64,000 nt of DNA from Gemmatimonadales bacterium (GCA_033764505.1 JANRIW010000027.1:7831-71830), one strand, 5' to 3'; numbered from the stretch's first letter, positions 2,507-53,985 are shown. Program-made: numbers and translations. Notes: generated by a model not told the origin, from the sequence alone.

Positions 2507-2508
2507 GG

Positions 2509-2577
2509 GCGCGGCCTGCGGCCGCGCATCCTGCCCTTTCACTTTTCACCTTTCACGACCCCCCCGTTCGCCCGTTC
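2509..2577. repeat. GC hairpin plus (CTTTCAC)x3 array; left inverted repeat of the DUF2779 gene
   Basis: GCGCGGCC-tgc-GGCCGCGC at 2509-2527, then ccCTTTCAC TTTTCAC CTTTCAC at 2534-2556. Confidence 0.85.
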
Positions 2578-2599: not shown

Positions 2600-4453
2600 A
2601 TGAAGACCCTCTCCAAGTCCGACTTCAAGCTGGCCCGCGACTGCCCGGCCAAGCTCACCTGGCGAGAGCGCGGCTATCCCAACACCCTCGATGACAATCC
2701 CTACCTCGCCCTCCTGGCCGAGGGGGGATACATGGTCGAGCAGTTGGCGCGGCTCCTCTTTCCGGGCGGCGTGGAGCTGGAGTATGACCCGCGTCGCTCC
2801 CGGGACGCATGGGAGACGACTCTCGCCGCGATCAGCAGCGGCGACGGCACCTGGTTCGAGGCCACCCTGCTCGCGGGACGCCAGCTCGCCCGGGTGGACA
2901 TTCTCAAGCGACGCGGCAATCGCTTCGACCTGTATGAGGTCAAGTCGAAGTCGTTCGACGGCGATGATCTCGATGAAGGTCCCGGTGGTCCGTTCCGCCA
3001 GAAGCGGAAGCCGTACGCTATCCGCGTCACTTGGCGGCCGTACCTCGAAGACATCACCTACCAGGTACATGTGCTGCACCGCCTCTTTCCCGAGGCCGAG
3101 GTGCATGCCCACCTGATTGTGGTGGACAAGTCATCCACGGCGAGCGTCGAGGCGATGCCGCGGCTGTTCACCATCCGGCGCGGACGGAATCCGGGGGAGC
3201 CCGATCTCGATGTCCGCTTCACCGGCGATCCGGCGGCGATCGATCCCGGCGAACTGCTCGGCGTGATTGCAGTGGACGCCGAGGTGGACGAATTGTTCGA
3301 CGAAGTGCGCGCCTTTGCAGATGCCCAGGAGTCGCGATACACCGATTCGGCAATAGCCCATCAACCGGCGCCGCTCGGGCTGCACTGCGCCAAGTGCGAG
3401 TACCGGGTCGCCACCGACGAGCCGCTGAACGGCTTCCGCGAATGCTGGGGTTCGCTCGCTCCCGATGGTCCGTCGGTGCTCGATCTCTACATGTTCGGTC
3501 TCACCAAGCACGACGGCGAGAAGCTCGGCGACGTGATGATCGCCAACGGGCGCACTGGGCTCGACGAGGTTGATCCCGCCCGGCTGGTCAAGAAGGACGG
3601 CACTCCGACCTCCTACTCGACCCGGCAACTGATTCAGATCGAACACACTCGGCGCCGCGAGAGCTGGCTCGATCCCGCTCTGGCAACTGCGATTGCCAAC
3701 GTGAGCTACCCGCTCCACTTCATCGACTTCGAGACCAGTGCGCTGGCAGTTCCCTATCACCAGGGGATGCGACCCTATCAGTCGATCGGCTTCCAGTGGA
3801 GCTGTCACACCATCCGCGCGCCGGGCGCGGTGCCGGAACATCGCGAATGGCTCAATGTCGTCGATCTCTGGCCGGCCGTGGAGTTCATCGACTCGCTGCG
3901 CCGCGCAATCGGCGACGACGGCACGGTGCTGATCTGGTCCAAGTACGAGCGGACCATCCTGCGGCAGCAACGCGAGCAGCTCGAGGCGCGTGGCTTGGCG
4001 ACACCAGAGCTGATGCAATGGCTGGAACCGCTGGCCGACAAGGATTATCCCGACACCCGGCTCCTCGACCAGCACAAGCTCTGCGAGCGACACTACTTCC
4101 ACCCGGAGATGCATGGCAAGACCAGCATCAAATGGGTGCTCGACGCCATCTGGCAGAACGACCCCGAGGTCCGGCGGCAGTTCGCGGAGTGGATGGGCGG
4201 CGATGCCTATGACGTGGCAGCGGGGCTGGGCCCCTACGACGCGATGCCCAGAGTGGTGGTCGGCGACACGGTGCTCAACGTGGCCGACGGCACCGGGGCG
4301 ATGCGCGCCTACCAGGCGATGCTCTACGGTGATCCCATAGACCGGGACCGGCACGCCGAGCAGTGGGCCGAGCTGCTCCGGCGCTACTGCAAGCTGGACA
4401 CGCTGGCGATGGTGCTGATATGGGAGCATTGGCGGCGAGGGACGGCGCGGTGA
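2600..4453 (+). CDS. DUF2779-family protein: Cas4/PD-(D/E)xK-like nuclease fused to RNase H-like/DnaQ exonuclease domain
   Basis: LSKSDF...DCPAK, RVDIL, YEVKS, HCAKCEY...ECW; C-terminal YPLHFIDFET, RPYQSIGFQWSCH, YCKLDTLAM. Confidence 0.85.
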   Translation: MKTLSKSDFKLARDCPAKLTWRERGYPNTLDDNPYLALLAEGGYMVEQLARLLFPGGVELEYDPRRSRDAWETTLAAISSGDGTWFEATLLAGRQLARVDILKRRGNRFDLYEVKSKSFDGDDLDEGPGGPFRQKRKPYAIRVTWRPYLEDITYQVHVLHRLFPEAEVHAHLIVVDKSSTASVEAMPRLFTIRRGRNPGEPDLDVRFTGDPAAIDPGELLGVIAVDAEVDELFDEVRAFADAQESRYTDSAIAHQPAPLGLHCAKCEYRVATDEPLNGFRECWGSLAPDGPSVLDLYMFGLTKHDGEKLGDVMIANGRTGLDEVDPARLVKKDGTPTSYSTRQLIQIEHTRRRESWLDPALATAIANVSYPLHFIDFETSALAVPYHQGMRPYQSIGFQWSCHTIRAPGAVPEHREWLNVVDLWPAVEFIDSLRRAIGDDGTVLIWSKYERTILRQQREQLEARGLATPELMQWLEPLADKDYPDTRLLDQHKLCERHYFHPEMHGKTSIKWVLDAIWQNDPEVRRQFAEWMGGDAYDVAAGLGPYDAMPRVVVGDTVLNVADGTGAMRAYQAMLYGDPIDRDRHAEQWAELLRRYCKLDTLAMVLIWEHWRRGTAR

Positions 4454-4527
4454 AAGGTGAAAGGTGAAAGGGGGGCGCGGCAGGGCCGCGCGGGTGAACG
4501 GTGAACGGTGAACGGTGAAACGGGGGG
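4450..4527. repeat. (GTGAAAG)x3, GC hairpin, (GTGAACG)x3 and GTGAAAC; right inverted repeat of the DUF2779 gene
   Basis: Read directly; first unit contains the TGA stop; GCGCGGC-agg-GCCGCGC at 4475-4491. Confidence 0.9.
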
Positions 4528-10719: not shown

Positions 10720-12120
10720 GTGACCAAACCGAAAACCAGATGGCACCGCTCTGCAGTCCCGAGGTCAGGACCGCAGCCACTCGCAGGCTCCGAGGGACCG
10801 ACGATCGCACTCGCAACACTCGCCCGCCTCGCGATCCGGATCTACTACCGGATCCGTTATGGCGGGGAGCCCATCCCCGCCACCGGCCCGGCGCTGCTGG
10901 TGGCCAATCACCCCAACTCGCTGCTCGATCCGGTGGTGGTGATGGCGGCGGCGCGCCGCCAGGTGCGCTTTCTCGCCAAGGCGCCACTCTTCGCCGACCC
11001 GAAAACCGCCTGGTTCGTGAAGCTTGGTGGGGCGATTCCGGTGCACCGCGCCAGCGACGATCCTGCCAAGATGGCCGACAACGCCGCAATGTTCCGCGCC
11101 GTGCATGAGGCACTGGGTCAGGGCGACGCGGTGGGCCTCTTCCCGGAGGGGATCTCCCATGCCGCACCAGCGATGGCGCCGCTCCGCACCGGTGCGGCGC
11201 GGATCGCGCTGGGTGCCGCGCCACTTGTGGGGGGGGGATTTCCGGTGGTGCCGGTGGGACTCACTTTCCGGCAACGCGATGTGTTCCGGAGCGAGGCGCG
11301 GGTGGTGATCGGCGCGCCGATCGCCTGGGACGATCTGGCCGATCGCGGAGTGGACAACCCGGAGGCGGTGCGGGAGTTGACCGCTCGCATCGCCGGGGCG
11401 TTGGCAGCGATTACCCTCAACCTCGAGCGGTGGGAAGACGAACCGCTGGTGACCTGTGCCGTCCGCGTGTGGGAGGCTGAGCATCAGCAACCACCGGCCA
11501 CCGCGGAGCGTGCCCGCCGGATCACGATCACGACCCGGCTGCTCGCCGCCATTCGGGCGAGCGGTGATCCCGAGGGAGCAGCGGTGGTGCGCGCGGTGGG
11601 CCAACATCACCGCCGACTGATGCGGCTCGGGCTCAGACCGGTGGACCTGACCGTGACGCTGGGATGGTGGCATGGTGCCCGCTGGGCAGCGCGCCGATTG
11701 CCGGTCGTGCTGCCGCTCTGGGCGGCGCTCGGCGTGACGGGGTGGCTGTTGTTCGTGATTCCGTATCGACTGACCGCGTGGATCGTGAACCGCTTCACTC
11801 TCGAGACCGACACCCGCTCGACCTGGCAGTTCCTGATCGGGAGCGGGGTGTACCTGGCGTGGGTGGTCGGCTGGGGAGTTGTGGCCGGGCTTGTCTGGGA
11901 CCTCTGGGCAGCGTTCGCGGTGCTGATCGCCGTGCCGGTGGTCGGCATGGCCGGGCTGCTGGTGCGCGAGCGGTGGCGTGGTGCGTGGAACGACCTCAGC
12001 CGATTCGTCCTGATGCGTTCCCGAGATAGATTGCTGACCACTCTGCGGCAGGAGCAGCACGACCTCGCCGAGCGACTCGATGCCCTTTATCACCGCGCTT
12101 CCGCGGGAGAGACCGCATGA
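10720..12120 (+). CDS. Phospholipid/glycerol acyltransferase with C-terminal TM helices
   Basis: ANHPNSLLD (HX4D), FPEGISH. Confidence 0.9.
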   Translation: MTKPKTRWHRSAVPRSGPQPLAGSEGPTIALATLARLAIRIYYRIRYGGEPIPATGPALLVANHPNSLLDPVVVMAAARRQVRFLAKAPLFADPKTAWFVKLGGAIPVHRASDDPAKMADNAAMFRAVHEALGQGDAVGLFPEGISHAAPAMAPLRTGAARIALGAAPLVGGGFPVVPVGLTFRQRDVFRSEARVVIGAPIAWDDLADRGVDNPEAVRELTARIAGALAAITLNLERWEDEPLVTCAVRVWEAEHQQPPATAERARRITITTRLLAAIRASGDPEGAAVVRAVGQHHRRLMRLGLRPVDLTVTLGWWHGARWAARRLPVVLPLWAALGVTGWLLFVIPYRLTAWIVNRFTLETDTRSTWQFLIGSGVYLAWVVGWGVVAGLVWDLWAAFAVLIAVPVVGMAGLLVRERWRGAWNDLSRFVLMRSRDRLLTTLRQEQHDLAERLDALYHRASAGETA

Positions 12121-13424
12121 CGGCGATCGCCTCCGACCCACCGGCACCGTTTCAGCGGGATGTTCCCCGGGTGATCTGGTCGTGGGCGCTGTACGACTGG
12201 GCCAACAGCGCCTTCACGACGCTGGTGGTGACCTTCATCTACGCCACCTACTTCACCAGGGCGATGGCACCCGACGAGGTGACGGGAACCGCCTGGTGGT
12301 CGCGTGGCGTGGCGATCAGCGCGATCCTGATCGCGATGCTGTCGCCGCTGATGGGGGCGATCGCCGACCGGGGCGGGATGCGGAAGCGTTTTCTGGCGCT
12401 CTCGACGGCGGTGTGCGTGGCGGCAACGGCGGCACTCGCCTTCATTGCTCCTGGGGGGGGGACGGCGGCGTTGGTCGCGATCGTGCTGTTCGTGATCGCC
12501 AACATCGCCTTCGAAATGAGCGGACTGTTCAACAGCGCCTTTTTGCCGAGCATCGCCTCTCCCGGTCGGATCGGACGGATCTCCGGCTATGGCTGGGGAC
12601 TGGGATACGTGGGTGGTCTGGTCTGCATGGTGATCGCGCTGGTGGGGTTCGTGCAGCCGGAGGTGCCATGGTTCGGGATGAGCACCGAGGCAGGATGGAA
12701 TGTGCGCGCCACCAACCTGCTGGTGGCGGTATGGTATGCTGTGTTCGCACTGCCGATGTTTTTCAACGTTCCCGAGCGCAAGGTGGTGGGCGGCAAGGTG
12801 GATGTTGCAGGGGCTTTCCGTTCGCTGGCCCAGACGGTGCGCGACGTCCGGCGCTACGGCGAGGTCGTCAAGTTTCTGGCGGCGCGACTGATCTACAACG
12901 ACGGCCTGGTGACGATCTTCGCCTTCGGAGGGATCTACGCCGCCGGTACCTTCGGCTTCGCGCTCAGCGAGGTGATCATTTTCGGAATCGTGCTCAATGT
13001 CGCCTCGGGAATCGGGGCGGTGCTGTTCGGGTTCGTCGATGACCGGCTCGGCGGGCGCAACACGGTGCTGATCACCCTGGCCGGATTGATCCTGGCAGCC
13101 CTCATCGCGGTGCTCGCTCCCACCGCCACCTGGTTCTGGGTAGCCGGGATCCTGGTGGGGATCTTCGTGGGCCCCAACCAGAGCGCCTCCCGCTCGCTGA
13201 TGGGGCGGCTGGTCCCCGAGAAGCACGAGACGGAGTTCTTCGGCTTCTTCGCCTTCAGCGGCAAGGCCACGGCGTTTCTCGGGCCGCTGCTGCTCGGAGT
13301 GGTGACGACCATGTTCGACTCGCAGCGCGCCGGAGTGGCGACGGTGGTCGGATTCTTCCTGGTCGGCGGATTGGTGTTGCTGACCGTGGACGAGAAGAAG
13401 GGGATGGCGGGGAAGGAGATGTGA
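12117..13424 (+). CDS. MFS transporter (UMF1/ATG22-like)
   Basis: WALYDWANSAF, GRISGYGWGLGY, QSASRSL, EFFGF. Confidence 0.9.
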   Translation: MTAIASDPPAPFQRDVPRVIWSWALYDWANSAFTTLVVTFIYATYFTRAMAPDEVTGTAWWSRGVAISAILIAMLSPLMGAIADRGGMRKRFLALSTAVCVAATAALAFIAPGGGTAALVAIVLFVIANIAFEMSGLFNSAFLPSIASPGRIGRISGYGWGLGYVGGLVCMVIALVGFVQPEVPWFGMSTEAGWNVRATNLLVAVWYAVFALPMFFNVPERKVVGGKVDVAGAFRSLAQTVRDVRRYGEVVKFLAARLIYNDGLVTIFAFGGIYAAGTFGFALSEVIIFGIVLNVASGIGAVLFGFVDDRLGGRNTVLITLAGLILAALIAVLAPTATWFWVAGILVGIFVGPNQSASRSLMGRLVPEKHETEFFGFFAFSGKATAFLGPLLLGVVTTMFDSQRAGVATVVGFFLVGGLVLLTVDEKKGMAGKEM

Positions 13425-13538
13425 AAGGTGAAAGGTGAAAGGTGAAAGGTGAAAGGTGAAAGGTGAAAGGTGAAAGGGAAGCCCGCCTGACAACCCGTTT
13501 TACCTTTCACGTTTTACGTTTTACCTCTTACGTTTCCC
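13421..13538. repeat. Heptamer inverted-arm element: (GTGAAAG)x8, 20-nt core, degenerate CTTTCAC/GTTTTAC arm
   Basis: Eight perfect units at 13421-13476; core GGAAG-CCCGCCT-GACAACCC; right arm 13497-13538. Confidence 0.95.
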
Positions 13539-13613
13539 CAGTTCCCCCGCTGCGAGTCGCACCGGTCACCGTGCGTCAACAGTTGATCAACGTTCTTCGA
13601 CACCGAGGCCACC

Positions 13614-14123
13614 ATGTCCGTCCGTCCGGTTCCTGATGCAGTGCGTGTTGGCATCATGCTTTCCCTGGCAGCGATTCTGTTCGGTTTCTTGTTGGGAGGG
13701 GCATTTGGCGCATTCGAGCCCGTACTCAAGGGCCGTCTGGCAGCATCGGCTGATGCAGTATTGGCTACGGCATACAACGGCGACGTCGCGGCGAAGGACG
13801 CGGTCGTGGCCAAGTCGTGGGAATACCTCAAGCGCGCCCATCTGCATGGCGGTGGCATCGGCGGGGCGTCGCTGGCGGCGATCGCGATCCTTCTGCTCAC
13901 CACCAAGCTGGGACGGATGGCGCAGTACAGCGCCGTGGCATTCGGCGCGGGGGCATTGATCTACGCGGTGTTCTGGTTGGCGGCAGGGTTCAGCGCCCCC
14001 GGGATGGGAAGCACCGGTGCGGCCAAGGATGCGTTCGAGTGGATCGCGGTGCCCGGGGCTGGTCTGGCGATTTTAGGAGCGCTCGGTACGATGATCTCCG
14101 TGTGGCGGGATCGTTCGGCATAG
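13614..14123 (+). CDS. Hypothetical 4-TM membrane protein
   Basis: Hydrophobic helices, KRAHLHGGG motif, SD-like GAGG upstream. Confidence 0.7.
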   Translation: MSVRPVPDAVRVGIMLSLAAILFGFLLGGAFGAFEPVLKGRLAASADAVLATAYNGDVAAKDAVVAKSWEYLKRAHLHGGGIGGASLAAIAILLLTTKLGRMAQYSAVAFGAGALIYAVFWLAAGFSAPGMGSTGAAKDAFEWIAVPGAGLAILGALGTMISVWRDRSA

Positions 14124-14301
14124 CAGCGTTGGTTGAGTTGAATGTTTCGCTCTGATCGTTTCAGCGGTGCTGTGTTTTCTGGTGCGATGACCCCGGGGAC
14201 GATCACTCTCTCGGCGGCCTGTATGTGGCCGCCCATTCCGCCATATCCCAAACCGGGCACCGGCCACCTAACGGCCGCCATGAGAGCGATCGCCCCCGAG
14301 G

Positions 14302-14327
14302 ATCCAACATCCAGCATCCAACATCCA
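14302..14327. repeat. (ATCCARC)n heptamer array directly after the cutC stop
   Basis: ATCCAAC ATCCAGC ATCCAAC ATCCA. Confidence 0.85.
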
Positions 14328-14981
14328 CTAACCATTCACCACCCTTGCCACCGCCTCGAATCTCTCCCCATCAGTCGCCCGCAAGTGAATCTCAGCCACG
14401 CCAGTAGTCGCGACCAGCTCGGCGGCGTGTGAGGCGACGATCCCTCCGCCGGCCATCACCGCGAGTCGTCCCGCCGCCTGCTGCACCAATGAAGCGATCT
14501 GCCCTCTTCCTTCCCACGCGGACTCGGCACCGCCGCTGGTCAGCACCCTTGAGATACCAAGTTCGATGAGGGTGTCGAGTGCCTCGACCTGATCACGCAC
14601 GGCATCAAATGCCTTGTGGAAGGTGAGGTCGATCGGTCCGGCCGCATCGCGAAGCCGCGAGACGGTGTCGCGGTCGATGGTGCCACGCAGCGTCAGCGCG
14701 CCGATCACCATTCCCGGCACCCCGAGGGTGCGGAGCTGCGTCACGTCGTGCAGCATGGCCCGGACATCGTCGCTGCTGAATACGAAATCTCCGCCACGGG
14801 AGCGGACAATTGGGTAGACCGGAATGCTGCATCGGCCCAGTGCCACAGCCACGATTCCGTGACTGGGTGTGGTGCCGCCGACGGCAAGATTGGAGCAAAG
14901 CTCAATGCGGTCGGCGCCCAACCGTTCGGATCGGAGAGCCTCCTCTGGAGATTCAACGCAGGCCTCGATCAGGATCGGCAT
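14328..14981 (-). CDS. cutC: Copper homeostasis protein CutC
   Basis: GADRIELC, GGTTPS, RGGDF, TFHKAFD, RVLTSG. Confidence 0.93.
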   Translation of the reverse strand: MPILIEACVESPEEALRSERLGADRIELCSNLAVGGTTPSHGIVAVALGRCSIPVYPIVRSRGGDFVFSSDDVRAMLHDVTQLRTLGVPGMVIGALTLRGTIDRDTVSRLRDAAGPIDLTFHKAFDAVRDQVEALDTLIELGISRVLTSGGAESAWEGRGQIASLVQQAAGRLAVMAGGGIVASHAAELVATTGVAEIHLRATDGERFEAVARVVNG

Positions 14982-15141
14982 GGTCAAAAGCTACCCACTT
15001 CCCGGGAACAGTCGAGGCGCGCGGAGCGTTCGGACTGCAGGGTCAACAGTTGACCCATCCACATCACAGGTTGCTTTCACTGCCCACGCTGCAATCATGG
15101 CGCATTTGAGACGTGGGCATCTCACAGAAGGAACGAGACCG

Positions 15142-16209
15142 ATGGCTGATATGCTGCTCCTATCTCCGGTGACACTCGGCGCACTGGAACTCCGGAACCG
15201 CCTGGTGATGGCGCCGATGACCCGGAACCGGGCCACTCCCGACGGCCTGCCGACCCCGATGATGACCACCTACTACACCCAGAGGTCATCGGCGGGGCTG
15301 ATCATCACCGAGATGACGCAGATCACCCCTGAGGCGGTCGGCTACATGAACACCCCCGGGATCCACTCTGCGGAGCAGGTCGCGGCCTGGCGCACGATCA
15401 CCGAAGCGGTCCATGCCGCGGGTGGGCGAATCGTGATGCAACTGGGCCATGCGGGCCGGATCTCCCACCCGTTGCTGATCGGTGGCCTTACTCCGGTGGC
15501 GCCCTCGGCGATTCGTCCGGAGGGGAAGTGCTTCACTCCGCAGGGGCAGCTTCCCTACGAGACGCCGCGCGCGCTTGCGACCGAAGAGCTGCCGACCATC
15601 GTGGCACAGTTCCGCCACGCGGCGGCGATGGCCAAGGAGGCGGGCTTCGATGGCGTCGAGCTGCACTCCGCCAACGGTTATCTGCTCGATGAGTTCCTGC
15701 GCAGCGGGACCAACAAGCGCACCGATGGCTATGGTGGATCGGTGGAAAACCGCACGCGTCTGTTGCTGGAGGTCGCATCGGCGGCTGGCGAGGTTTGGGG
15801 ACCGGGACGCGTCGGCGTCCGGGTGTCGCCATTCAATTCTTTCAATTCCATGCACGATGACCAACCGTTGGAGACCTTCCCCGCAGTGGCCCGTCTGCTC
15901 GATGCGCTCTCACTCGCCTACCTGCACATCAGCTACGGCGGCAGCAGCGTGGAGCAACGGCCGGAGATGATCGCCCGCATGCGCTCGGCGTTTGGTGGTC
16001 CTATCATCGCCAACGCCGGCTACGATGTCGAGCGGGCCGAGACGGCGCTCAAGGCCAAAGAGGCGGAGGCAATTGCGTTCGGCGTGCCGTTCATCGCCAA
16101 CCCTGATCTCCCCGCCCGATTCGCTCGTGGGGCCGAGCTGAACGCAGCCGACCCGGCGACCTTCTACATGGGAACCGAAGTGGGATACATCGACTACCCG
16201 AACCTGTAA
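15142..16209 (+). CDS. Old yellow enzyme / alkene reductase (NemA-like)
   Basis: MAPMTRNR, GFDGVELHSANGYL, FIANPDL, GYIDYP. Confidence 0.95.
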   Translation: MADMLLLSPVTLGALELRNRLVMAPMTRNRATPDGLPTPMMTTYYTQRSSAGLIITEMTQITPEAVGYMNTPGIHSAEQVAAWRTITEAVHAAGGRIVMQLGHAGRISHPLLIGGLTPVAPSAIRPEGKCFTPQGQLPYETPRALATEELPTIVAQFRHAAAMAKEAGFDGVELHSANGYLLDEFLRSGTNKRTDGYGGSVENRTRLLLEVASAAGEVWGPGRVGVRVSPFNSFNSMHDDQPLETFPAVARLLDALSLAYLHISYGGSSVEQRPEMIARMRSAFGGPIIANAGYDVERAETALKAKEAEAIAFGVPFIANPDLPARFARGAELNAADPATFYMGTEVGYIDYPNL

Positions 16210-16341
16210 AAGAGAGAAAGAGAGAAAGAGAGAAAGAGAGAAGGAGAGAAAGTCCCTCGTCCCGATCGCAGTGAGGGACGAGGGATGCTGGGCCGCCCCG
16301 CCTCTCTTTCTCTCCTTCTCTCTTTCTCTCCTTCTCTCTTT
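16209..16341. repeat. Octamer inverted-arm element filling a convergent intergenic region, with internal 11-bp hairpin; probable bidirectional 3'-end structure
   Basis: (AAAGAGAG/AAGGAGAG)x5 at 16209-16248; TCCCTCGTCCC/GGGACGAGGGA at 16253-16285; (CTCTCYTT)x5 at 16302-16341. Confidence 0.93.
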
Positions 16342-17670
16342 CTAGAGCGTCCAGCCGTCGCGATAGGTGGAGTCGATGTACTCCTTCGGGACCGAGGTGC
16401 GGACGGTGCCGTCGGGTTCGAGCTCGATCATCCGCCCGGTGCGGACTGCCAGGCAGCCGTAGAGCACCATCTCGGTGAGCGGTCCGGCGTGTTCGGCGAA
16501 GTTGCTCATCGGTGCCGGTCCCTTGCCGGTGATGGCGTTGATCCACTCGACATACACTCCCGGGGAGCGCGGGTAGACGATCTTCGGCGGGTTCTTGGTG
16601 AACTGCTCGTGGCGCTTGGGGTTGAGGATGCGGGCGTTGTCGCCATAGGCATCGGCGACCATGGCACCTTCGGTACCGACCCACATCTGGCCACCGACCT
16701 CGCCGATCGGCCACTCGTCGTATTCGCCCAGCTCGGGCGGCTTGGCCGGCCAGAGCGAGCCGTCGCGCCAGACCACCTTCACCGCCGGCCGCTTGCCGCG
16801 GGCCGGGAAGTCATATTCCACGCGCGACTGCTTCGGTGCGGTCTCCTCGTAGCTGGTGCTGCCCTCGGGGGTGATGCGGGTGGGGTTCCGCAGGTCGAAG
16901 GCCCAGAAGGCGGCGTCCATCGCATGGCAGGCGATGTCACCCAGCGCGCCGGTGCCGTAGTCCCACCAGCCGCGCCAGCGGAACGGGGCGTACACCGGCG
17001 AGTACGGACGCTCCTTGGCGGGGCCCTGCCAGAGATTCCAATCGAAGGTGGGGTGCGGGTTGTGGGCCTCGGTGGGGCGGTCTAGTCCCTGGGGCCAGAT
17101 CGGGCGATTGGACCAGTAGTGGACCTCGCGAATCTCGCCGATGGCGCCGGCCTCGTACCACTCGCGGATCGCGCGCGTGCCGACACCGGCGTGGCCTTGA
17201 TTCCCCATCTGGGTGGCCACTCCACGCCGTCTGGTCTCCGCCATCAGGGTGCGCACCTCGTGCAGGGTACGGGTGAGCGGCTTCTGGGTGAACACTGGCT
17301 TGTTGAGCCGGAGCGCTGCCATCGTCGCGGTGGCATGGACATGGTCCGGGGTGGAGATGCTCACTGCGTCGATCTCGCTCCCCATCTGGTCGAGCATCTC
17401 GCGGAAATCCTTGAACCGGCGCGCGTCAGGATGACGACCGAAGCTCTTCTTGCCGGCGCGCCAGTCGACATCGCAGAGCGCCGCCACCGAGGCACCGGCC
17501 TTGACGATGCCGGTGATGTCGCTCTCGCCTTTCCCCCCGATGCCGATCGCCGCCAACCGCACCATGTCGCTTGGCGCCGTGAAGCCCCGGCCGAGAACGT
17601 GGCGCGGGACGATGTGGAAGGCCGCCCCGGTGGCGGCAGCGGATGCGAGAAACTTGCGGCGAGAGGACAT
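16342..17670 (-). CDS. Gfo/Idh/MocA oxidoreductase with Tat signal
   Basis: MSSRRKFL, IGIGGKG, STPDHVH, QKPL, QMGNQG, GALGDIACH. Confidence 0.93.
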   Translation of the reverse strand: MSSRRKFLASAAATGAAFHIVPRHVLGRGFTAPSDMVRLAAIGIGGKGESDITGIVKAGASVAALCDVDWRAGKKSFGRHPDARRFKDFREMLDQMGSEIDAVSISTPDHVHATATMAALRLNKPVFTQKPLTRTLHEVRTLMAETRRRGVATQMGNQGHAGVGTRAIREWYEAGAIGEIREVHYWSNRPIWPQGLDRPTEAHNPHPTFDWNLWQGPAKERPYSPVYAPFRWRGWWDYGTGALGDIACHAMDAAFWAFDLRNPTRITPEGSTSYEETAPKQSRVEYDFPARGKRPAVKVVWRDGSLWPAKPPELGEYDEWPIGEVGGQMWVGTEGAMVADAYGDNARILNPKRHEQFTKNPPKIVYPRSPGVYVEWINAITGKGPAPMSNFAEHAGPLTEMVLYGCLAVRTGRMIELEPDGTVRTSVPKEYIDSTYRDGWTL

Positions 17671-17682
17671 GGGGAACTCCGT

Positions 17683-17807
17683 AAAGAGAGAAGGAGAGAA
17701 GGAGAGAACGAGAGAAAGAGAGACAAGGCGTAGAGGCCAGCTCCAGGCTTCAGGCCGGAAGCGGATCCTCTCTTTCTCTCTTTCTCTCGTTCTCTCCTTC
17801 TCTCTTT
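17683..17807. repeat. Octamer inverted-arm element
   Basis: Five units at 17683-17722 and five complementary units at 17768-17807, both containing the rare AACGAGAG variant. Confidence 0.93.
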
Positions 17808-18976
17808 GGATTGAACAGCACCGCAAACAACACGAAAATCACCAGCGCTCCGGTGGCCGGGACCTGCCAGATGGCGGTCCAGTCGTGGCCTCCACTCGGG
17901 AGGGCGTAGTGGTCGACGATCCTGCCGCTGGCCCATGATCCCACGAAATTGCCGAGCCCGAGGGTGACCAGCGCGATGAATCCCTGGGCGGCGGCGCGGA
18001 TCTTCGGTCCGGCCTGTTGGTCGACGTAGATCTGACCGCTCACGAAGAAGAAGTCGTAGCAGACGCCGTGGAGCAACAAGCCTCCATACAACATCCAGAC
18101 TCCCGGGCCGGCGTCGCCGTGGGCAAAGAGGAAGTAGCGGGCGGCCCAGGCGAGCATCGCCACCAGCAGAATCGTCTTGATGCCGTGTTTCCGGAGGAGG
18201 ACTCCGATGAACAGCATGAAGAAGACCTCGCTCATCTGCCCCATCGTCATCTTGCCGGCCGCACTGGCCACGCCGATCTCGTTCAGGAATGGGTTGGCGA
18301 AGGCGTAGTAGAATTGCAGCGGGATCGAGAGCAGGAACGATCCCGTCACGAACACCGCGAATGAGCGGTCCTTGAGCAGTGCGAGGGCGTCGAGCCCGAG
18401 GACGTCGCGGAGCGCGAACGGCTGGCCACGTGCCGGGGGCGGAGTGTGTGGCAGCAGGAACGCAAAGCCGCCGAGCAGCAGCGAGGCGGTGGCGGCGATC
18501 CGGATCGGCAGGGCAGTGTCATCGACGGCGAGCCAGCCGAGCAGCAGGCCGACCGTGATCCACCCGAGAGTTCCGAGTACTCGCACGCCGCCGAACTGGC
18601 CGGCCGGGTCGCGGAGGTTGCTCATCGAGATGCTGTTGGTGAGCGCCAGGGTCGGCATGTAACAGAGCGAGTAGGCGAGCATGCCGAGGTACATCGACTG
18701 GAAGGTGGTCAGCGTCGAGACGTACCAGAGCAGAGCCGCTCCCACGAGGTGGAGCAGCGCGATGATCTTCTCGGTGGCGAAGAAGCGGTCGGCGATCATC
18801 CCCACGAAAAAGGGCGAGACGATGGCAGCGACCGCCGTGGTGCCGTAGATCAGGCCGATCTGGACGCCCTCGAACTGCAGAGTCTTGCCAAGGTAGGTGC
18901 CGAGGGTGACTGCCCAGCTCCCCCAGATGAAATACTGGAGGAACATCATGATCTGCAGCCGGAGGCGCGGACTCAC
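17750..18976 (-). CDS. Nucleoside:H+ symporter family MFS permease (NupG/XapB-like)
   Basis: MMFLQYFIWGSW, IADRFF, RVLGTLGW, GQMSEV, HGVCYDFFFV. Confidence 0.92.
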   Translation of the reverse strand: MSPRLRLQIMMFLQYFIWGSWAVTLGTYLGKTLQFEGVQIGLIYGTTAVAAIVSPFFVGMIADRFFATEKIIALLHLVGAALLWYVSTLTTFQSMYLGMLAYSLCYMPTLALTNSISMSNLRDPAGQFGGVRVLGTLGWITVGLLLGWLAVDDTALPIRIAATASLLLGGFAFLLPHTPPPARGQPFALRDVLGLDALALLKDRSFAVFVTGSFLLSIPLQFYYAFANPFLNEIGVASAAGKMTMGQMSEVFFMLFIGVLLRKHGIKTILLVAMLAWAARYFLFAHGDAGPGVWMLYGGLLLHGVCYDFFFVSGQIYVDQQAGPKIRAAAQGFIALVTLGLGNFVGSWASGRIVDHYALPSGGHDWTAIWQVPATGALVIFVLFAVLFNPKREGENERKREREDPLPA

Positions 18977-19707
18977 TGGGCGGGCCGGATCTTGATGTTC
19001 TGATACCAGACCGAATCACCATGATCCTGCAGCCCGATATAGCCTCGGCGCGTTTTGCCGAAGGTGGGCCATTCGTTGAACTTGCTCTCGGCGATCAGCG
19101 CCTTGAGTTCGGGAGAGTCGAAGTCTGCCTGCACCACCCGGACTCCATTGAGCCAGTGCTCCACCTTGCCGCCCTTGGTGGTGATCCGCGACTTGTTCCA
19201 TTCGCCCACCGGTTTCACCAGCCCCGGATCTGCGGGTGCCAGCCCGTAGAGCGATCCCGCAGCGGTTAGCGGGGTCAGGCCATCGCGGTGCGCGATGTTG
19301 TCGAGGACTTGGTATTCCGGGGCGTTGTGGTAGATCCGTTCACTCGCTTCGTGCGCCCAGAAAAACACCCCGCTGTTGCCGCCCTCACTGACCTTCCATT
19401 CAAACTCCAGCTCGAAGGTGTCGAACTGGTCGTTGGTCACCAGATCGCCGCCCTCCCCGGTGCGCACCAGCATTCCCTCGATCACCCGCCAGCCCTCGAT
19501 CGTGTTGGGCTTGGCGTAGATATGCCAGCCGCTGGTGGTCATCCCGTCGAACAGAAGTCGCCATCCCTCGCGTCGCTCGGCAAGCGACAGGGTGTTCGGC
19601 ATCTGGGGACCGATCGGCTCGAGCGGTGGCGGGGTGCGACCGCAAGCGGCCAACATGGCGATCGCGGCAGCAGCGAGGGTGGCACGTGGGAACGCGCACG
19701 AAATCAT
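18973..19707 (-). CDS. DUF1080 (3-keto-disaccharide hydrolase-like) lipoprotein
   Basis: GWRLLFDG, GGNSGV, EYQVLD, GEWNKSRI, IGLQDHG. Confidence 0.92.
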   Translation of the reverse strand: MISCAFPRATLAAAAIAMLAACGRTPPPLEPIGPQMPNTLSLAERREGWRLLFDGMTTSGWHIYAKPNTIEGWRVIEGMLVRTGEGGDLVTNDQFDTFELEFEWKVSEGGNSGVFFWAHEASERIYHNAPEYQVLDNIAHRDGLTPLTAAGSLYGLAPADPGLVKPVGEWNKSRITTKGGKVEHWLNGVRVVQADFDSPELKALIAESKFNEWPTFGKTRRGYIGLQDHGDSVWYQNIKIRPAQ

Positions 19708-19792
19708 CAGCAGACCTCGGAGGAGGAGATGGGGAGTGGCGGGAAATCTATATCCGATCCGGTGACGGTGTCATCTGCACGCCTCTCACCTT

Positions 19793-21811
19793 TCACTCGT
19801 CGTCGCCACCCTGACCCCGCCCCTCAACCAGCACCCGCACCGCCTCGCCGCCCACCGGCCGGAGCAGCCCGAAGCGCTTGCCGACCGTGCGGGCCAGAGT
19901 CGAGTCGGCTCCGGCACGCCAATTCCCATCTGCGACCGTGCCATCGGCGCGTCGTTGCAGTGCCGCCTCGCCAAGGGCGCCGAGCTCGGCGAGCGCAGTA
20001 GCTACGGCAGCTCCTTCCAACGCCACCGGGACTCGGTCCGTCATGCTGCGGAGTGCCGGGGCGAAGCGTTGCATCTTCTCGAAGTGCCCTCGCAGGGCCG
20101 CCACCGCGTTCGCGTCACCCGATACGGCCTGAGCGGCAAGTTGCTGCATCCGCCAGCCGAGCCACGGATCGGGACGAGCAGCATCGACCAGCCGGGTCAT
20201 CGGCGTCAACTGGTTGGTGCCGTAACCGCCGAACCCCTTGGGACGAGCGTAGTCGAGGAAGGACGCGAGCAGCTCCAGATCGGTGCCGCCGGCGTGCCTC
20301 CGCAGCATCCTGGCGGTGTGATCCTCGTGCCGGAGCCCTAGCTCGGCCAACTGTCGCGACACCACCTCGAGGCGGCGATACATGTCGGGGACATCGCGCA
20401 CCTTGGCGGGCGACCAGAATCGTTCTGCCACTGCACCCAGCCGGGGGAAGATGCGCGACTCGATGGTCTCGGAGGTGACATACTCGCTCCACATCGCCGC
20501 TTCGCCACCGAGCACGAGCCGTTGCTGGTCCTCGGCAAGGTCATGTCCTGCAGGGAGCACGTCGGCGAGGTACATCTCGCCGGCGGTCTTGATGTGATCG
20601 AGATACCACGGTGCCGAGAGGATCGTCTGGCGACCCTGCTTTGCCGCGGCGAGCAGCCCTTCCGGACCGCGCCAAGACTGGATCACCGCGCCGCGGGGAA
20701 GGTCGGGTTGCAGGATCTCGTCCCACCCCACCGGCTGCCGTTCATGGCGGGCCAGAATGGCAAAGAGTCGCTCGTTGAAGCGGGTCTGCAGTCCGTGCGT
20801 GTCGGTGACGTTGTTGGCCCGCATCCACGCTTGGATCGCCTCACTCTCCCGCCAGTGGGTCGGGTCGACTTCATCCCCGCCGATGTGCCAGCTCCGGTCC
20901 GGAAAGAGCGGCACCATCTCGGCAATGAATGTCTCGAGGAAGCGATAGGTCGATTCACGGGTCGGGTCCATCGTCCCCTTGAAGACCCCCCAGCCCCGCT
21001 CGATCCGGTACGGCCCGGGAGCACTGCCGAGCTCCGGATAGCCGACCAACCACGCGGTGGTGTGGCCGGGTACGTCGAACTCCGGCACCACCCGGATGCC
21101 GCGCTCGGCGGCGTAGGCCACCACCTTCCGGATCTCGTCCTGGGTGTAGAAGAGACCGTCGGAGCCGAGCTGGTGGAGCAGCGGGAAGGCGCGGCTCTCG
21201 ACCCTGAACCCCTGATCCTCGCTCAGATGCCAGTGCAATACGTTGAGCTTGAGTGCGGCCATCCCGTCGATGATCCGCTCGATCACGCTCACCGGTTCGA
21301 AGTGCCGGGCAACATCCACCAGCAGACCGCGCCAGGGAAAGCGCGGGGCGTCGTTGATGGTGGCTGCCTGGAGAAAATGTCCCTCGCGGTCGGCACCGTG
21401 CAGTTGGAGCAACGTTTCCAGGCCGCGAATGGCACCCACCACGGTGGCGGCATGGAGTCGCGCCTGTGTGGCGGAGATTTCGAGTTGGTAGCTCTCGTCC
21501 TCGCCGAGGTCGGGGACGGTGAACCCGGCGCCATCGACCTCGATCACCAACCGGGCTGCCTCTGGACTTGCCGCGGTGCGCGGGAGATGGCGGGCGACGC
21601 GTCGCTCCAACCGTTCGAGGGTCCGCTCCACGGCGCCTTCCAGGCGGGCGTCGCGGTGGCCGATCCAGGCCAGGGTGAACGAGGAATCGAGTCGCAAGCG
21701 CGCGTCAGTGAAGAGTGCGGATTGCGGGGTCGGCAACAACGTGTTGCTCGGCGAGCTCTGGGCGGCGAGCGATCCGGTGCCGATCATGATGGCAGTGATG
21801 AGTTTGCGCAT
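19793..21811 (-). CDS. Beta-N-acetylhexosaminidase (GH20)
   Basis: DAPRFPWRGLLVDVARHF, HWHLSEDQG, HIGGDE, GGEAAMWSE; start MRKLITA. Confidence 0.95.
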   Translation of the reverse strand: MRKLITAIMIGTGSLAAQSSPSNTLLPTPQSALFTDARLRLDSSFTLAWIGHRDARLEGAVERTLERLERRVARHLPRTAASPEAARLVIEVDGAGFTVPDLGEDESYQLEISATQARLHAATVVGAIRGLETLLQLHGADREGHFLQAATINDAPRFPWRGLLVDVARHFEPVSVIERIIDGMAALKLNVLHWHLSEDQGFRVESRAFPLLHQLGSDGLFYTQDEIRKVVAYAAERGIRVVPEFDVPGHTTAWLVGYPELGSAPGPYRIERGWGVFKGTMDPTRESTYRFLETFIAEMVPLFPDRSWHIGGDEVDPTHWRESEAIQAWMRANNVTDTHGLQTRFNERLFAILARHERQPVGWDEILQPDLPRGAVIQSWRGPEGLLAAAKQGRQTILSAPWYLDHIKTAGEMYLADVLPAGHDLAEDQQRLVLGGEAAMWSEYVTSETIESRIFPRLGAVAERFWSPAKVRDVPDMYRRLEVVSRQLAELGLRHEDHTARMLRRHAGGTDLELLASFLDYARPKGFGGYGTNQLTPMTRLVDAARPDPWLGWRMQQLAAQAVSGDANAVAALRGHFEKMQRFAPALRSMTDRVPVALEGAAVATALAELGALGEAALQRRADGTVADGNWRAGADSTLARTVGKRFGLLRPVGGEAVRVLVEGRGQGGDDE

Positions 21812-21907
21812 GGGGAATGTATGTCCCGGTCGGCACAAAAACGCGAGTGATGCGGTGCCGCTGACTATCTCTCCCGGAGCAACGATCGGAGAGATATACT
21901 TCCAGCC

Positions 21908-22708
21908 ATGCAAATCATCTCGCTCCACCGCTACCCGATCAAAGGGTGTCACGGCCAGACAGTCGATCGCGCGACCGTCGATGCGCTGGGAATGGTCGAT
22001 GATCGCCGTCTGATGCTGGTGGACGACGAGGGGCGCTTTCTCAGCCAACGCCAGATCCCCTCGCTTGCCCGGATCAGGCCGATCCTCGACGGCTCGCGGC
22101 TCACCGTGCAGGCGGAGGGGATCGCGACTCTCGAGATGGAGGTCGATCCTCACGCCGCCACCCGTACCGTGTCGATCTGGAACGACCAGGTGGAGGCGGC
22201 CGATCAGGGCGAGCCCGCCGCGGCATGGTTCAGCACGGTTGCCGGGCGGTCGTGCCGACTGGTGGGGTTCGGCGTCGGGGCGGAGCGGCCAATCGACCCC
22301 CAGTTCACGCCGCGACCGGACGCCCAGACCGCCTTCACCGACGGCTATCCGCTCCTCGGCATGCTGCAGGAATCACTCGACGACCTGAACAGCCGTCTCG
22401 CGGTTCCGGTCGCTATGGCATCGTTCAGGCCCACGGTGGTGCTAGCCGGTGCGCCGGCGTGGAGCGAGGATGGCTGGACCACCCTCCGCCTGGGCGAACT
22501 GGTGGTCGATGCCGTCAAGCCATGCGCACGCTGCGTGGTCACCACCATCGACCAGGAAAGCGGGACGCGCCATCCGCGGCAGGAACCGCTGCGGACCCTG
22601 GCGACTTTCCGGACGGTCGCCGGTATGGGCGTGCTGTTCGGGCAGAATCTGGTGCCCAGGACCGGGGGGGAGATCGTGGTGGGGATGGAGGTGAGAGGTG
22701 ACAGGTGA
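21908..22708 (+). CDS. MOSC domain protein (YcbX/mARC-like)
   Basis: RYPIKGC, DRRLM, FTDGYP, KPCARC. Confidence 0.92.
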   Translation: MQIISLHRYPIKGCHGQTVDRATVDALGMVDDRRLMLVDDEGRFLSQRQIPSLARIRPILDGSRLTVQAEGIATLEMEVDPHAATRTVSIWNDQVEAADQGEPAAAWFSTVAGRSCRLVGFGVGAERPIDPQFTPRPDAQTAFTDGYPLLGMLQESLDDLNSRLAVPVAMASFRPTVVLAGAPAWSEDGWTTLRLGELVVDAVKPCARCVVTTIDQESGTRHPRQEPLRTLATFRTVAGMGVLFGQNLVPRTGGEIVVGMEVRGDR

Positions 22709-22817
22709 AAGGGTGGACGGGATGTGGTCGAATCGTGAAACGTGAAAGGTGAAACGGAAGGTGGGGCGACAACCCCTTTCACCTTTCACCTTTCACCTTT
22801 CACCGTTCACCGTTAAC
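22691..22817. repeat. Heptamer inverted-arm element with conserved 20-nt core
   Basis: GTGANAG units at 22691-22711 and GTGAAAS units at 22735-22755; core GGAAG-GTGGGGC-GACAACCC; (CTTTCAC)x4 CGTTCAC CGTTAAC. Confidence 0.93.
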
Positions 22818-22862
22818 CCCCAGCCCCATCCCCGCAACCAGCCGACATGGAGTGCCTGATCA

Positions 22863-30832: not shown

Positions 30833-30937
30833 TGGGTTGCTGGATGTTGGATGTTGGATGCTGGGAAAGGGGGCTGGCGCCTCGATGGGTACTTGTCCCT
30901 GCTGTGTCCAACATCCAGGATCCAATATCCAACTTCC
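30833..30937. repeat. (YTGGATG)n / (TCCARNA)n heptamer inverted-arm element
   Basis: CTGGATG TTGGATG TTGGATG CTGGGA ... TCCAACA TCCAGGA TCCAATA TCCAACT. Confidence 0.88.
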
Positions 30938-41623: not shown

Positions 41624-42309
41624 TGCCGCGTGAAAAGCGGGCCGAACTGCTGGCCCGCACCAATCGCATCCTGGCAATCCTCTCCGCACAGCATCCCGAT
41701 GCCCACTGCGAGCTGGTACACCGCAATCCCTATGAGCTGCTCTGTGCCACCATCCTCTCGGCGCAGTGCACCGATGTCAGGGTCAATCTGGTTACCCCGG
41801 CGCTCTTTGCCCGCTACCCCGATGCCCACGCACTCGCCGCCGCGCGTCAGGAGGACGTCGAAGAGCTGGTGCGCTCCACCGGATTCTTCCGCAACAAGGC
41901 CAAATCGCTGATCGGCATGGCCGGTGCGCTGGTGGCCGACCACGGTGGCGAGGTCCCCGGCACCATGGAGGCCTTGCGGGTGCTACCCGGTGTCGGGCGC
42001 AAGACCGCCAATGTCGTCCTCGGCAACGCCTTCGGGATCAACGCCGGGATCACCGTGGACACCCACGTCAAGCGCATCAGCCGGTTGCTGCACCTCACCC
42101 GGGAGACCGACCCCGATAAGGTGGAAGCAGACCTGATGCGATTGGTGCCCCGAGATGAGTGGACGGTGGTCAGTCACCTGCTGATCTTCCACGGTCGCCG
42201 CACCTGTATCGCCAACCGGCCAAAGTGCGGGGAGTGCTGCATCCGTCTGGAATGCCCGTTCGGAAAGAGAGAAGGAGAGAAGGAGAGAAAGAGAGAAAGG
42301 GAGGGCTGA
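41623..42309 (+). CDS. nth: Endonuclease III
   Basis: [24 protein letters not shown]-x6-C-x2-C-x5-C. Confidence 0.95.
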
Positions 42310-42409
42310 TTTCGTTGGCATCTCCTGCTAGATTGGGCAGGAGTGGATGGCGAGTCATTTTCTCTCCTTCTCTCCTTTTCTCTTTCTCTCTTTCTCTCTT
42401 TCTCTCTTT
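42264..42409. repeat. Octamer inverted-arm element overlapping the nth 3' end
   Basis: Five AARGAGAG-type units at 42264-42303; six complementary units at 42362-42409; inner stem CTCCTGC/GCAGGAG. Confidence 0.92.
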
Positions 42410-50220: not shown

Positions 50221-51432
50221 ATGCTGATCGGCGAAACCGTACGGGTGGCGTTCCAGAGCATCCGGGCCAACAAGCTGCGGGCCATGCTCACGATGCTGGG
50301 TGTGATCATCGGGGTCGCCGCCGTCATCACCGTGGTGGCGATGGGAACCGGCGCACAGCGTTCCGTCGAGGCGCGCATCAACGCGCTCGGCGCCAACCTG
50401 ATCCAGATCAACGCCGGACAGGACCGGATGGCCGGCGTGGCTCGTGAGGGGGGGGCACCGCTCACCACTGATGATGCCGAGGCGTTGCGGCGCGACGTGG
50501 CGTCCCTGACGGCCGTGGTACCTGAGATGTCCCGCAACCAGCAGGTGGTCAGCGGCAACAGCAATATCAATGTCAGCGTCGTGGGAGCCACCGCCGGCTA
50601 CCTCGAGGCACGCAATTACACCATCACCCAGGGCCGGATGTTCTCCGTGGGTGATGATGCCTCCCGGCAACGCTATGCCGTGGTCGGCTCCGACGTGCCC
50701 AAGATGCTGGACATCCCGCCCGCCGCGATCATCGGACGGACCATCACCATCCGGGCCATTCCATTCGAGGTCATCGGGGTGTTGAGCGAGAAGGGCTCGC
50801 AGGGATGGCAGAACCCGGATGAGCAGATCCTGATTCCGCTCAACACCGCCCGGTACCGGGTGATGGGCACCGACCGGCTGCGGACCATCTCGGTCACCGT
50901 GGCCGACGGAGTGCCGCAGGAACAGGCGATGGTAGATGTTGAGCGGGTGATGCGGCGCGAGCACAAGATCCGCCCTGGCGGAATCAATGACTTCCAGGTG
51001 CGGTCGCCCAAGGAGTTCCTGGCCACGGCCGAGGAGACCAGCAAGACCTTCTCGGCGCTGCTCCTCTCCATCGCTGGAGTTTCGCTTCTGGTCGGCGGCA
51101 TCGGCATCATGAACATCATGCTGGTATCGGTGACGGAGCGTACCAAGGAAATCGGCATCCGCAAGGCACTCGGAGCCACCAAGATCGTGATCCTCTCCCA
51201 GTTCCTCATCGAAGCGCTGGTGCTCTGCCTAACCGGCGGCGGACTCGGTATCCTGCTCGGCTGGGGCACCTCGCAGATCGTCAGCGACAAACTCGGCTGG
51301 GTCACCGAGATCTCGCCAAGTGCGGTGGTCGTCGCTTTCGGATTTTCGGCATTCGTCGGTCTCTTCTTCGGACTCTGGCCGGCCCGGCGCGCAGCCAGCC
51401 TCGATCCGATTCAGGCACTCCGCTACGAATGA
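50221..51432 (+). CDS. MacB-type ABC permease
   Basis: LTMLGVIIG, GGIGIMNIMLVSVTERTKEIGIRKALGA, DPIQALRYE. Confidence 0.95.
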   Translation: MLIGETVRVAFQSIRANKLRAMLTMLGVIIGVAAVITVVAMGTGAQRSVEARINALGANLIQINAGQDRMAGVAREGGAPLTTDDAEALRRDVASLTAVVPEMSRNQQVVSGNSNINVSVVGATAGYLEARNYTITQGRMFSVGDDASRQRYAVVGSDVPKMLDIPPAAIIGRTITIRAIPFEVIGVLSEKGSQGWQNPDEQILIPLNTARYRVMGTDRLRTISVTVADGVPQEQAMVDVERVMRREHKIRPGGINDFQVRSPKEFLATAEETSKTFSALLLSIAGVSLLVGGIGIMNIMLVSVTERTKEIGIRKALGATKIVILSQFLIEALVLCLTGGGLGILLGWGTSQIVSDKLGWVTEISPSAVVVAFGFSAFVGLFFGLWPARRAASLDPIQALRYE

Positions 51433-51450
51433 GGGCGAGCGGCGGAGGCG

Positions 51451-51641
51451 GGTGAGGGGTGAACGATGAGGGGTGAGGGGTGAGGGGTGAAACGTAAAAG
51501 GTGAAACGGAGGACGGTGAACTGACCACACTACCGTTTCACCTTTCACCTTTCACCTTTCACCTTTCACCACTCGCCATCCACCACTCGCCATTCACCAC
51601 TCGCCATCCACCACTCGCCATCCACCGCTTCCCGTTCACCC
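51451..51641. repeat. Compound heptamer inverted-arm element with a 14-mer higher-order array
   Basis: GGTGAGG/GTGAAAC arm, core, GTTTCAC (CTTTCAC)x4, then (CACCACTCGCCATY)x4 at 51567-51622. Confidence 0.92.
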
Positions 51642-53963: not shown

Positions 53964-53985
53964 AGAGAGAAGGAGAGAAGGAGAG
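53962..53985. repeat. Single octamer arm starting in a stop codon
   Basis: AAAGAGAG AAGGAGAG AAGGAGAG. Confidence 0.8.

Follow-up and report, generated by a model that had tools for sequence, protein, structure and literature searches.

The repetitive extragenic palindromic (REP) sequences, bacterial interspersed mosaic elements (BIMEs) and REPINs of gamma-proteobacteria are present as hundreds of extragenic hairpin copies, mostly at the 3' ends of genes, and include sub-families with master-like sequences. The family sequences vary between species while the same intergenic positions stay occupied. The short tandemly repeated repetitive (STRR) sequences of cyanobacteria consist of intergenic tandem heptanucleotide units, with several unit families per genome, and we know of no conserved tip in them. 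In Xanthomonas (Rehm et al. 2015, PMC4692102), the intergenic heptamer repeats of the GGGAATC type include, in each genome, 70-75 inverted pairs termed 'convergent'. According to the text of that article (PMC4692102), the G-rich strand is 5' on each strand, the repeats are concentrated within 50 bp of a stop codon or overlap it, fewer are found between divergent genes, there is no association with insertion sequences, and the function is unknown. Here, three heptamer-armed hairpins located in a 64,000-nucleotide stretch of DNA from a Gemmatimonadales bacterium (referred to as the window) are described, which probably belong to a REP-like family of intergenic elements that are copied whole.

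Like the Xanthomonas repeats, as portrayed in the article text, these hairpins are built from tandem 7-nt units arranged as intergenic inverted pairs near stop codons. Unlike them, the GTGAAAG and GTGAAAC units of the window lack a run of three G residues, though GGGGTGA units elsewhere in the same assembly would qualify; as the window units have no G-tract, a G-quadruplex reading does not apply to these copies. Further differences from the repeats of that text are the coexistence of many different units in one assembly and the presence of tips with sub-family conservation that more than one species shares, whereas the Rehm et al. text does not contain the word 'spacer' and is not known to describe a conserved inter-arm sequence. 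The original prediction knew of no description of this architecture, but inverted heptamer arrays near stop codons were already in print for Xanthomonas. Literature searches, which did not extend to supplements, returned no paper on such repeats in Gemmatimonadetes. In behaviour the REP/REPIN sequences are closest, as both are abundant extragenic imperfect palindromes, with 191 merged elements in the assembly studied here, but the arms of the present elements are expandable microsatellite arrays and not a fixed palindrome of 20-40 nt. The STRR sequences share with them the intergenic tandem heptamers and the multiple unit families per genome, and differ in lineage and in their units.

The assembly holding the window (G000) is a 3.62-Mb metagenome bin of 39 contigs, 94% complete with 5.42% contamination, and the window lies on contig C27. 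Arrays of the GTGAAAG/C type oppose CTTTCAC arrays across a non-repetitive tip at 13421-13538 (copy 1), 22735-22817 (copy 2) and 51450-51640 (copy 3). These opposed arrays had been seen in the original prediction and were recovered here in the sequence itself, with Tandem Repeats Finder and in folds compared with shuffles. The claim that two of the tips have cores of equal length was likewise borne out: the 20-nt cores on the plus strand at 13477-13496 (GGAAG-CCCGCCT-GACAACCC, whole tip GGAAGCCCGCCTGACAACCC) and 22756-22775 (GGAAG-GTGGGGC-GACAACCC, whole tip GGAAGGTGGGGCGACAACCC) both read GGAAG-N7-GACAACCC and have 13 of 20 positions in common, in register. The tip of copy 3 (GGAGG...CACACTACC, 51508..51534, plus strand), which had been regarded as related, has in common with the other copies GGAGG, CACAC..CC and the arm-end triplet, and can be compared with tips of the form GGAGG-N7-CACACCCC in another species. 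However, it is a longer or diverged form of the core with 27 nt, and copy 3 is plausibly a diverged member of the family, not a clear one.

Only two copies of the exact core are present in G000, both in the window, and no further array of the assembly contains it. Among 51 congeners, the exact core had one match (in G049), located outside arrays, and its reversed control had two. Searching a species-representative collection with the 5' arm plus core gave no matches, and with the core plus 3' arm gave five, none of them in arrays. A metagenome scan with GAAAS-GGAAG-N5-9-GACAACCC returned at least 120 matches at no fewer than 119 loci, a pattern too loose to be informative; among the matches listed, seven pass a permissive filter for arms, but in none of the seven are both sides flanked by heptamer arms. 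When the core was relaxed to GAAAS-GGARG-N7-RACAMCCC-STTT with up to two mismatches, nine elements with arms were found in the congener G012 and one in G032, as compared with none for the reversed control, and G014, G034 and G031 had none. The tip at G012:C28:346286, GGAGG-GTGGGGC-GACACCCC, is identical to that of window copy 2 at 18 of 20 positions, including the entire N7. Comparison by tblastx of four G012 loci, two of which are among the nine core-matching elements, with the window revealed homology only in the repeats and none in the flanks. The core thus recurs across species at non-orthologous loci, and as the same relaxed core in the same arms lies between non-homologous flanks, these copies are related by descent. 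As judged from these sequences, GGAAG-N7-GACAACCC marks one real sub-lineage that spans species and not the whole family, most members of which have different tips. Hence, the proposal of one dispersed family in place of independent slippage was upheld, the arm-end triplet and GGARG-N7-RACAMCCC both recurring in another species between unrelated flanks, but the view of the core as the feature defining that family was not.

The inner arm is a more general mark of the family. The 23-mer GTGAAACGTGAAAGGTGAAACGG (GTGAAAC-GTGAAAG-GTGAAAC-GG), sought with up to two mismatches, is present in nine of 52 congeners, the reversed control having no match in any of the 52. Counts are highest in G012 (331), G032 (210) and G014 (107), followed by G034 (40), G031 (20), G000 (10), G009 and G044 (3 each) and G043 (2). 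The tips taken from 51 places in G032 and 36 in G012 are mostly unrelated sequences that are alike in length, begin with GG and finish with CC. In an alignment of 11 members, mean column identity is 86%, and the proposed hairpin pairs 87.8% of the cells, as compared with 34-53% when the partners are slid. A covariance model (R1) built from this alignment, an approach put forward with the original prediction, has matches at E <= 0.001 in 36 of the 52 genomes, with at most 103 candidates scored per genome. It also matches copy 3 (63.0 bits, C27:59317-59385), the arms giving most of the score. The 52-genome tallies for the covariance model, for identity and for the transposase domain Y1_Tnp discussed below include G052 and/or G053, which are flagged as unpublished and on which nothing beyond these counts depends.

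The window copies are part of a large class of hairpins in G000, where 993 period-7 arrays were found. The commonest canonical units are AAGCGAG (172), AACGGTG (140), ACCCCTC (99) and ACCTACG (72), and 202 inverted heptamer pairs merge into 191 elements. Only 10 of the 191 have their midpoint in a called gene; 97 lie between co-directional, 44 between convergent and 30 between divergent genes, and 10 are at contig edges, the intergenic regions of the assembly as a whole numbering 2389, 361 and 368, respectively. The 5' arm is the purine-rich arm in 184 of the 191, counted as heptamer pairs, and where only one of the unit's strands contains a stop codon, the 5' arm is formed by this strand in 100 pairs versus 1. 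Arrays begin flush with stop codons. Among 99 arrays of stop-free units, 95% start no more than 10 nt before or after the stop codon upstream (median +1; interquartile range -1 to +2), as do 58% of 102 arrays of stop-containing units, and junction sequences have the stop codon 0-3 nt ahead of the first unit. In the largest family in G000, which comprises two sub-types and has 31 nhmmer hits (for example, C37:14380-14474), GAGAAGC arms enclose a 32-nt palindrome with GATC at its centre. As the 32-nt core is also found with GGTGAAC arms, cores and arms are modular. Eight of the 31 hits lie within ~110 nt of a contig end, which indicates that these repeats break the assembly and that copy numbers are underestimated.

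Two other repeats were observed together with these hairpins. An abundant repeat starting with GTCATCCTGAGCG has 159 regular-expression matches in G000, often within heptamer-hairpin loops. At window positions 2505-2560 and 4449-4520, arrays of the GTGAAAG/GGTGAAC type are adjoined by a small hairpin module rich in G+C (GGCGCGGCC, 3-4 nt, GGCCGCGC), which is also found nested in many elements of G000 with GGTGAAC arms and at G012 and G014 loci.

The part of C27 containing the three copies is atypical of the assembly. G+C content is 64.5-66.9% per 10-kb window, as compared with 68-71% in the rest, and climbs from ~0.65 to ~0.70 near C27:69-70 kb; tetranucleotide correlation with the genome is 0.947-0.969, versus a median of 0.993. 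Six of the eight GTGAAAG-type arrays, all seven arrays of the octamer AAAGAGAG/AAGGAGAG and two of the three TGGATGT arrays are confined to C27:10-62 kb. The genes in the window are ordinary chromosomal ones (PolX, cardiolipin synthase, TolC-MacAB, PilB), and collinear counterparts within G000 were found on C19, C18, C12, C28 (26 kb) and C22 at 69-77% identity, which is the identity typical between species of the genus. From its composition and this second set of genes, the first ~69 kb of C27, which includes nearly the whole window (1-61200, C27:~7-69 kb), is most likely the DNA of a second congener, present because the bin is contaminated, the contig is chimeric or a large segment was transferred.

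This pair of diverged copies allows intergenic slots to be compared. Five slots are occupied by hairpins in both the window and the homeologous copy, one in the window only, two in the homeolog only and six in neither. In all five doubly occupied slots the units are unrelated, so that slots are conserved while the units turn over. The slot of copy 2 holds a GATGATC/GATCATC palindrome in the homeolog, and that of copy 3 a GAGAAGC hairpin with the 32-nt core. At the latter, alignment of the flanks extends to the stop codon and resumes ~15 nt before the next start codon, everything between having been exchanged. The remaining three are the slots of two octamer hairpins and a TGGATGT hairpin. Octamer-armed hairpins (AAAGAGAG / CTCTCTTT) are located at window positions 16209-16343, 17686-17807, 42263-42409 and 53965-53985; all seven octamer arrays of the assembly lie in the window, and in the homeolog two of their slots are occupied by hairpins built from different, heptameric units. 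The TGGATGT / TCCAACA-armed hairpin (30841-30937) corresponds to an AGGTCGT / TACGACT hairpin in the syntenic slot of C28. The slot occupied in the window only is that of copy 1, where downstream synteny is lost. Orthologues of the major facilitator superfamily (MFS) transporter gene preceding copy 1 in G009 and G014 were considered as empty sites, since they have array-free ends, but they encode a longer C-terminus, and as downstream synteny is lost and identity is ~73% they are not clean empty sites; the search for such sites in sister genomes was accordingly unsuccessful.

Each of the three window copies lies directly behind one plus-strand gene and ahead of another, and each combines a perfect array in one arm with a degenerate opposite arm. 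This contrast fits slippage on one arm at a time. Copy 1 follows a gene for an ATG22-like/MFS transporter (12117..13424, plus strand; Pfam PF11700, 5.1e-57, and PF07690), and its first GTGAAAG unit contains the TGA stop codon of that gene (13422-13424). The 5' arm on the plus strand consists of 8.1 units of GTGAAAG with 100% matches (13421-13477, Tandem Repeats Finder). The 3' arm (13497..~13538, plus strand) is made of degenerate GTTTTAC/CTTTCAC/CTCTTAC units, recognised by the same program as a period-7 array of 5.7 units with 75% matches at 13496-13535.

Copy 2 follows a gene for a MOSC-domain protein (21908..22708, plus strand; PF03476, 2.5e-29, and PF03473). Its outer 5' arm, decayed to GAGGTGA/GGTGACA/GGTGAAA units (22688..22734, plus strand), begins within the end of the MOSC gene and leads into the GTGAAAC-GTGAAAG-GTGAAAC triplet that is the family signature (22735..22755, plus strand); Tandem Repeats Finder reports 3.9 units at 22730-22756. 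On the other side of the tip, four CTTTCAC units are followed by outer units of the CCGTTCA type (22776..22818, plus strand; array of 5.3 CCTTTCA units with 96% matches at 22775-22811). Overlapping the MOSC gene by 245 nt is the longest open reading frame of a GH20 hexosaminidase gene on the minus strand (19793-22153), the Pfam domains of which begin at residue 139, so that the true start is probably further in.

Copy 3 is located behind a gene for a MacB/FtsX-type permease (50221..51432, plus strand; PF12704, 7.8e-44, and PF02687). The outer 5' arm has GGGTGAG-type units (51450..51486, plus strand; 5.9 units at 51450-51490 by Tandem Repeats Finder) and the inner arm the triplet GTGAAAC-GTAAAAG-GTGAAAC (51487..51507, plus strand). 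The 3' arm is GTTTCAC followed by four CTTTCAC units (51535..51570, plus strand; TTTCACC array of 5.0 units with 100% matches at 51536-51570). Directly 3' of it, 4.3 units of the 14-mer CACCACTCGCCATC (51567..51626, plus strand) occupy the rest of the intergenic slot.

Folding energies of the plus- and minus-strand RNAs are -61.6 and -40.6 kcal/mol for copy 1 (z -8.0 and -4.3 versus shuffles), -69.0 and -68.0 kcal/mol for copy 2 (z -4.5 and -7.1) and -76.6 and -66.8 kcal/mol for copy 3 (z -7.9 and -8.4). In copy 1, only the plus-strand RNA folds well, because the 3' arm pairs partly via G-U. The strong hairpin directly behind a gene and the pyrimidine-rich, U-containing 3' arm, which looks the same in both directions, are reminiscent of intrinsic terminators. 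Unlike these, the elements have no U-tract and have stems of 20-60 bp, 30 of the 171 classified elements lie between divergent genes, and none of the three copies was flagged by a consensus terminator scan, which accepts loops of 3-8 nt only and reported 7 sites in all versus 5.6 expected from shuffles.

Several other origins of these hairpins were considered. Were each locus to have grown its inverted arrays in place, by slippage under selection for a hairpin, the likeness of the tips would be due to chance or to a need for GG...CC closing pairs. Such growth would suit the perfect, evidently recent array in one arm of each copy, the mostly dissimilar tips within G032 and G012, and the lack of a mobility gene in G000 as judged by a search for the Y1 transposase. 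Moreover, the match between the two cores in the assembly is not overwhelming on its own, as shuffled loops reach scores of 15 in best-partner local alignment. It is difficult to reconcile with the recurrence of the core inside the same arm-end triplet in nine G012 elements against none in the control, one of these tips agreeing with copy 2 even in N7, or with the absence of flank homology at the four loci tested, two of them among the nine. The inner units follow a non-periodic C/G/C order that also recurs exactly, with at least 31 exact 23-mers among the G032 matches listed, and for 55 of 130 G000 loops of 12-60 nt there is a partner whose score exceeds the 99th percentile for shuffled loops. 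Since the same conserved-variable-conserved core recurs in the same arms in another species, the core is not a chance match, and growth in place is improbable. An assembly artefact, by which the arrays or their lengths were produced in metagenome assembly, could be suspected from the fragmentation and contamination of the bin and from the frequency with which contigs end in such repeats. It is nevertheless very improbable, given that independent assemblies contain the same architecture (the 23-mer being in nine of 52 genomes) and that the elements lie between intact genes with conserved flanks. Near-identical DNA of a 9,951-base stretch is also present in 20 runs from 15 studies, which is silent on the arrays themselves.

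The hairpin might instead be selected as RNA, with GGARG/RACAMCCC serving as a sequence-specific site for a protein or nuclease beneath a variable apical loop. The conserved-variable-conserved layout of the tip across species would agree with this, as would the start of the elements at the stop codon, the sense orientation of the core relative to both neighbouring genes in all three window copies, and the better folding of the sense RNA in copies 1 and 3. However, the advantage of the sense strand is absent genome-wide (47 elements versus 47, with 3 ties; Wilcoxon p = 0.80), compensatory changes were found in none of 24 pairs among the 11 aligned sequences, and the window has no Rfam match. 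By rough gene calls, the GGARG core is sense in five and antisense in two co-directional contexts, and five of the nine G012 core members lie between convergent genes; the orientation of other asymmetric cores relative to genes showed no significant bias, the numbers being small. A structured RNA module, as entertained in the original prediction, is thus unlikely. Its other suggestion, a MITE- or REPIN-like element, would in the REPIN case require movement by a REP-associated tyrosine transposase (RAYT) that is missing from the incomplete G000. Consistent with this, Y1_Tnp genes, mostly single-copy, are present in 28 of 51 congeners including the family-rich G012 and G032, the G012 gene lies ~200 nt from a GGTGAAA array, and G000 is 94% complete with many repeats at contig ends. 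On the other hand, no match to the Y1 transposase (PF01797) was found in G000, G031 carries the family without a match, and G014 and G034 have weak partial matches only. Furthermore, many congeners with the gene lack the 23-mer, and a heptamer array adjoins only one of ten inspected Y1_Tnp loci in congeners, the other nine having no heptamer hairpin nearby. Without a RAYT detected in G000 or a consistent linkage in congeners, the elements differ from REPINs in this respect as well, and carriage by a missing RAYT has little likelihood. MITEs (miniature inverted-repeat transposable elements) are comparable in that the hairpins are ~80-190 bp, non-coding, dispersed and sometimes nested, with inverted arms; unlike in MITEs, the arms are arrays of variable length, the termini are undefined, and no related autonomous transposon was found in G000, the Y1 transposase being the sole family searched. 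A target-site duplication was not readable, as the repeat arms would hide a short one. The expectation of a co-occurring transposase was therefore not supported.

The most probable explanation is that all three copies belong to a lineage-specific family of REP-like intergenic hairpins, present in a subset of the species of one genus, whose elements are copied whole and placed behind stop codons. Each element would have an inner stem of ~23 bp with fixed, non-periodic units (GTGAAAC-GTGAAAG-GTGAAAC-GG paired with CC-GTTTCAC-CTTTCAC-GTTTCAC) and a tip of ~17-20 nt, while the outer arms would grow and shrink by heptamer slippage, each independently. GGAAG-N7-GACAACCC would be the tip of one sub-lineage with at least nine further members in G012. 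For the copying and the function we infer the following. Whole elements, stem and tip together, may be copied to new intergenic sites by a putative trans-acting or recombinational process, and would land in or replace resident hairpins in short slots behind stop codons. The transcribed hairpin would most likely be a factor-independent, bidirectional transcript-end structure, either a terminator or a block to 3' exonucleases, and slots behind stop codons may either require a hairpin or be alone in tolerating one.

A number of observations weigh against this explanation. The assembly contains just two exact copies of the core, and as the window appears to derive from another genome, represented by only ~69 kb, this count is no measure of how many copies the true host has. 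The slot comparison is small and borderline (one-sided Fisher p = 0.051), no empty and filled sites were seen between close relatives, the nearest genomes being only ~70-77% identical, and genome-wide counts are limited by gene calls made with our own codon log-odds caller. The flanks of 12 aligned members have no common or duplicated motif, repeat arms hiding short duplications, and a sharp element boundary is not readable because the arms are repeats. The Y1 transposase results given above provide no machinery for the copying. As to function, the elements between divergent genes do not fit a pure 3'-end role, nor do the equal folding of the two strands and the lack of compensatory changes favour a role as RNA. 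In addition, the seventh position of the unit is mismatched in 5-7 of the 11 aligned sequences, often as C-C, no T-run is present behind the 3' arms of the three copies, and the terminator scan passed over all three.

A broader form of this explanation is offered tentatively. The family would then be part of a genus-wide system of hairpin slots, in which slots at stop codons are re-colonised by species-specific heptamer-armed palindromes whose point of entry is the resident hairpin's tip or its vicinity. A putative factor would read a sub-apical tip motif, namely GGARG / RACAMCCC in the core sub-lineage and the 32-nt GATC palindrome in the main G000 family, and the elements would represent a RAYT-free, REP-like mobile class with self-expanding microsatellite arms. 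Entry at or near the resident tip would explain the nested arm types.

To our knowledge, the intergenic heptamer repeats of bacteria such as Xanthomonas and the cyanobacteria are a known puzzle for which there is no mechanism. The present observations add that sub-families have conserved hairpin tips, which different species share at unrelated loci, and therefore that the hairpins are copied as units rather than having grown where they stand. Metagenome assemblies break at these repeats, which may also join DNA from related populations. The filling of the same post-stop slots by unrelated units in two diverged genomes points to either a need for a hairpin or site-directed colonisation. With arrays starting within a few bases of the stop codon and the purine-rich arm lying 5', the hairpin base would be where a ribosome is positioned at termination. 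If a factor that binds the tip exists, it would represent a new way of spreading palindromic repeats.

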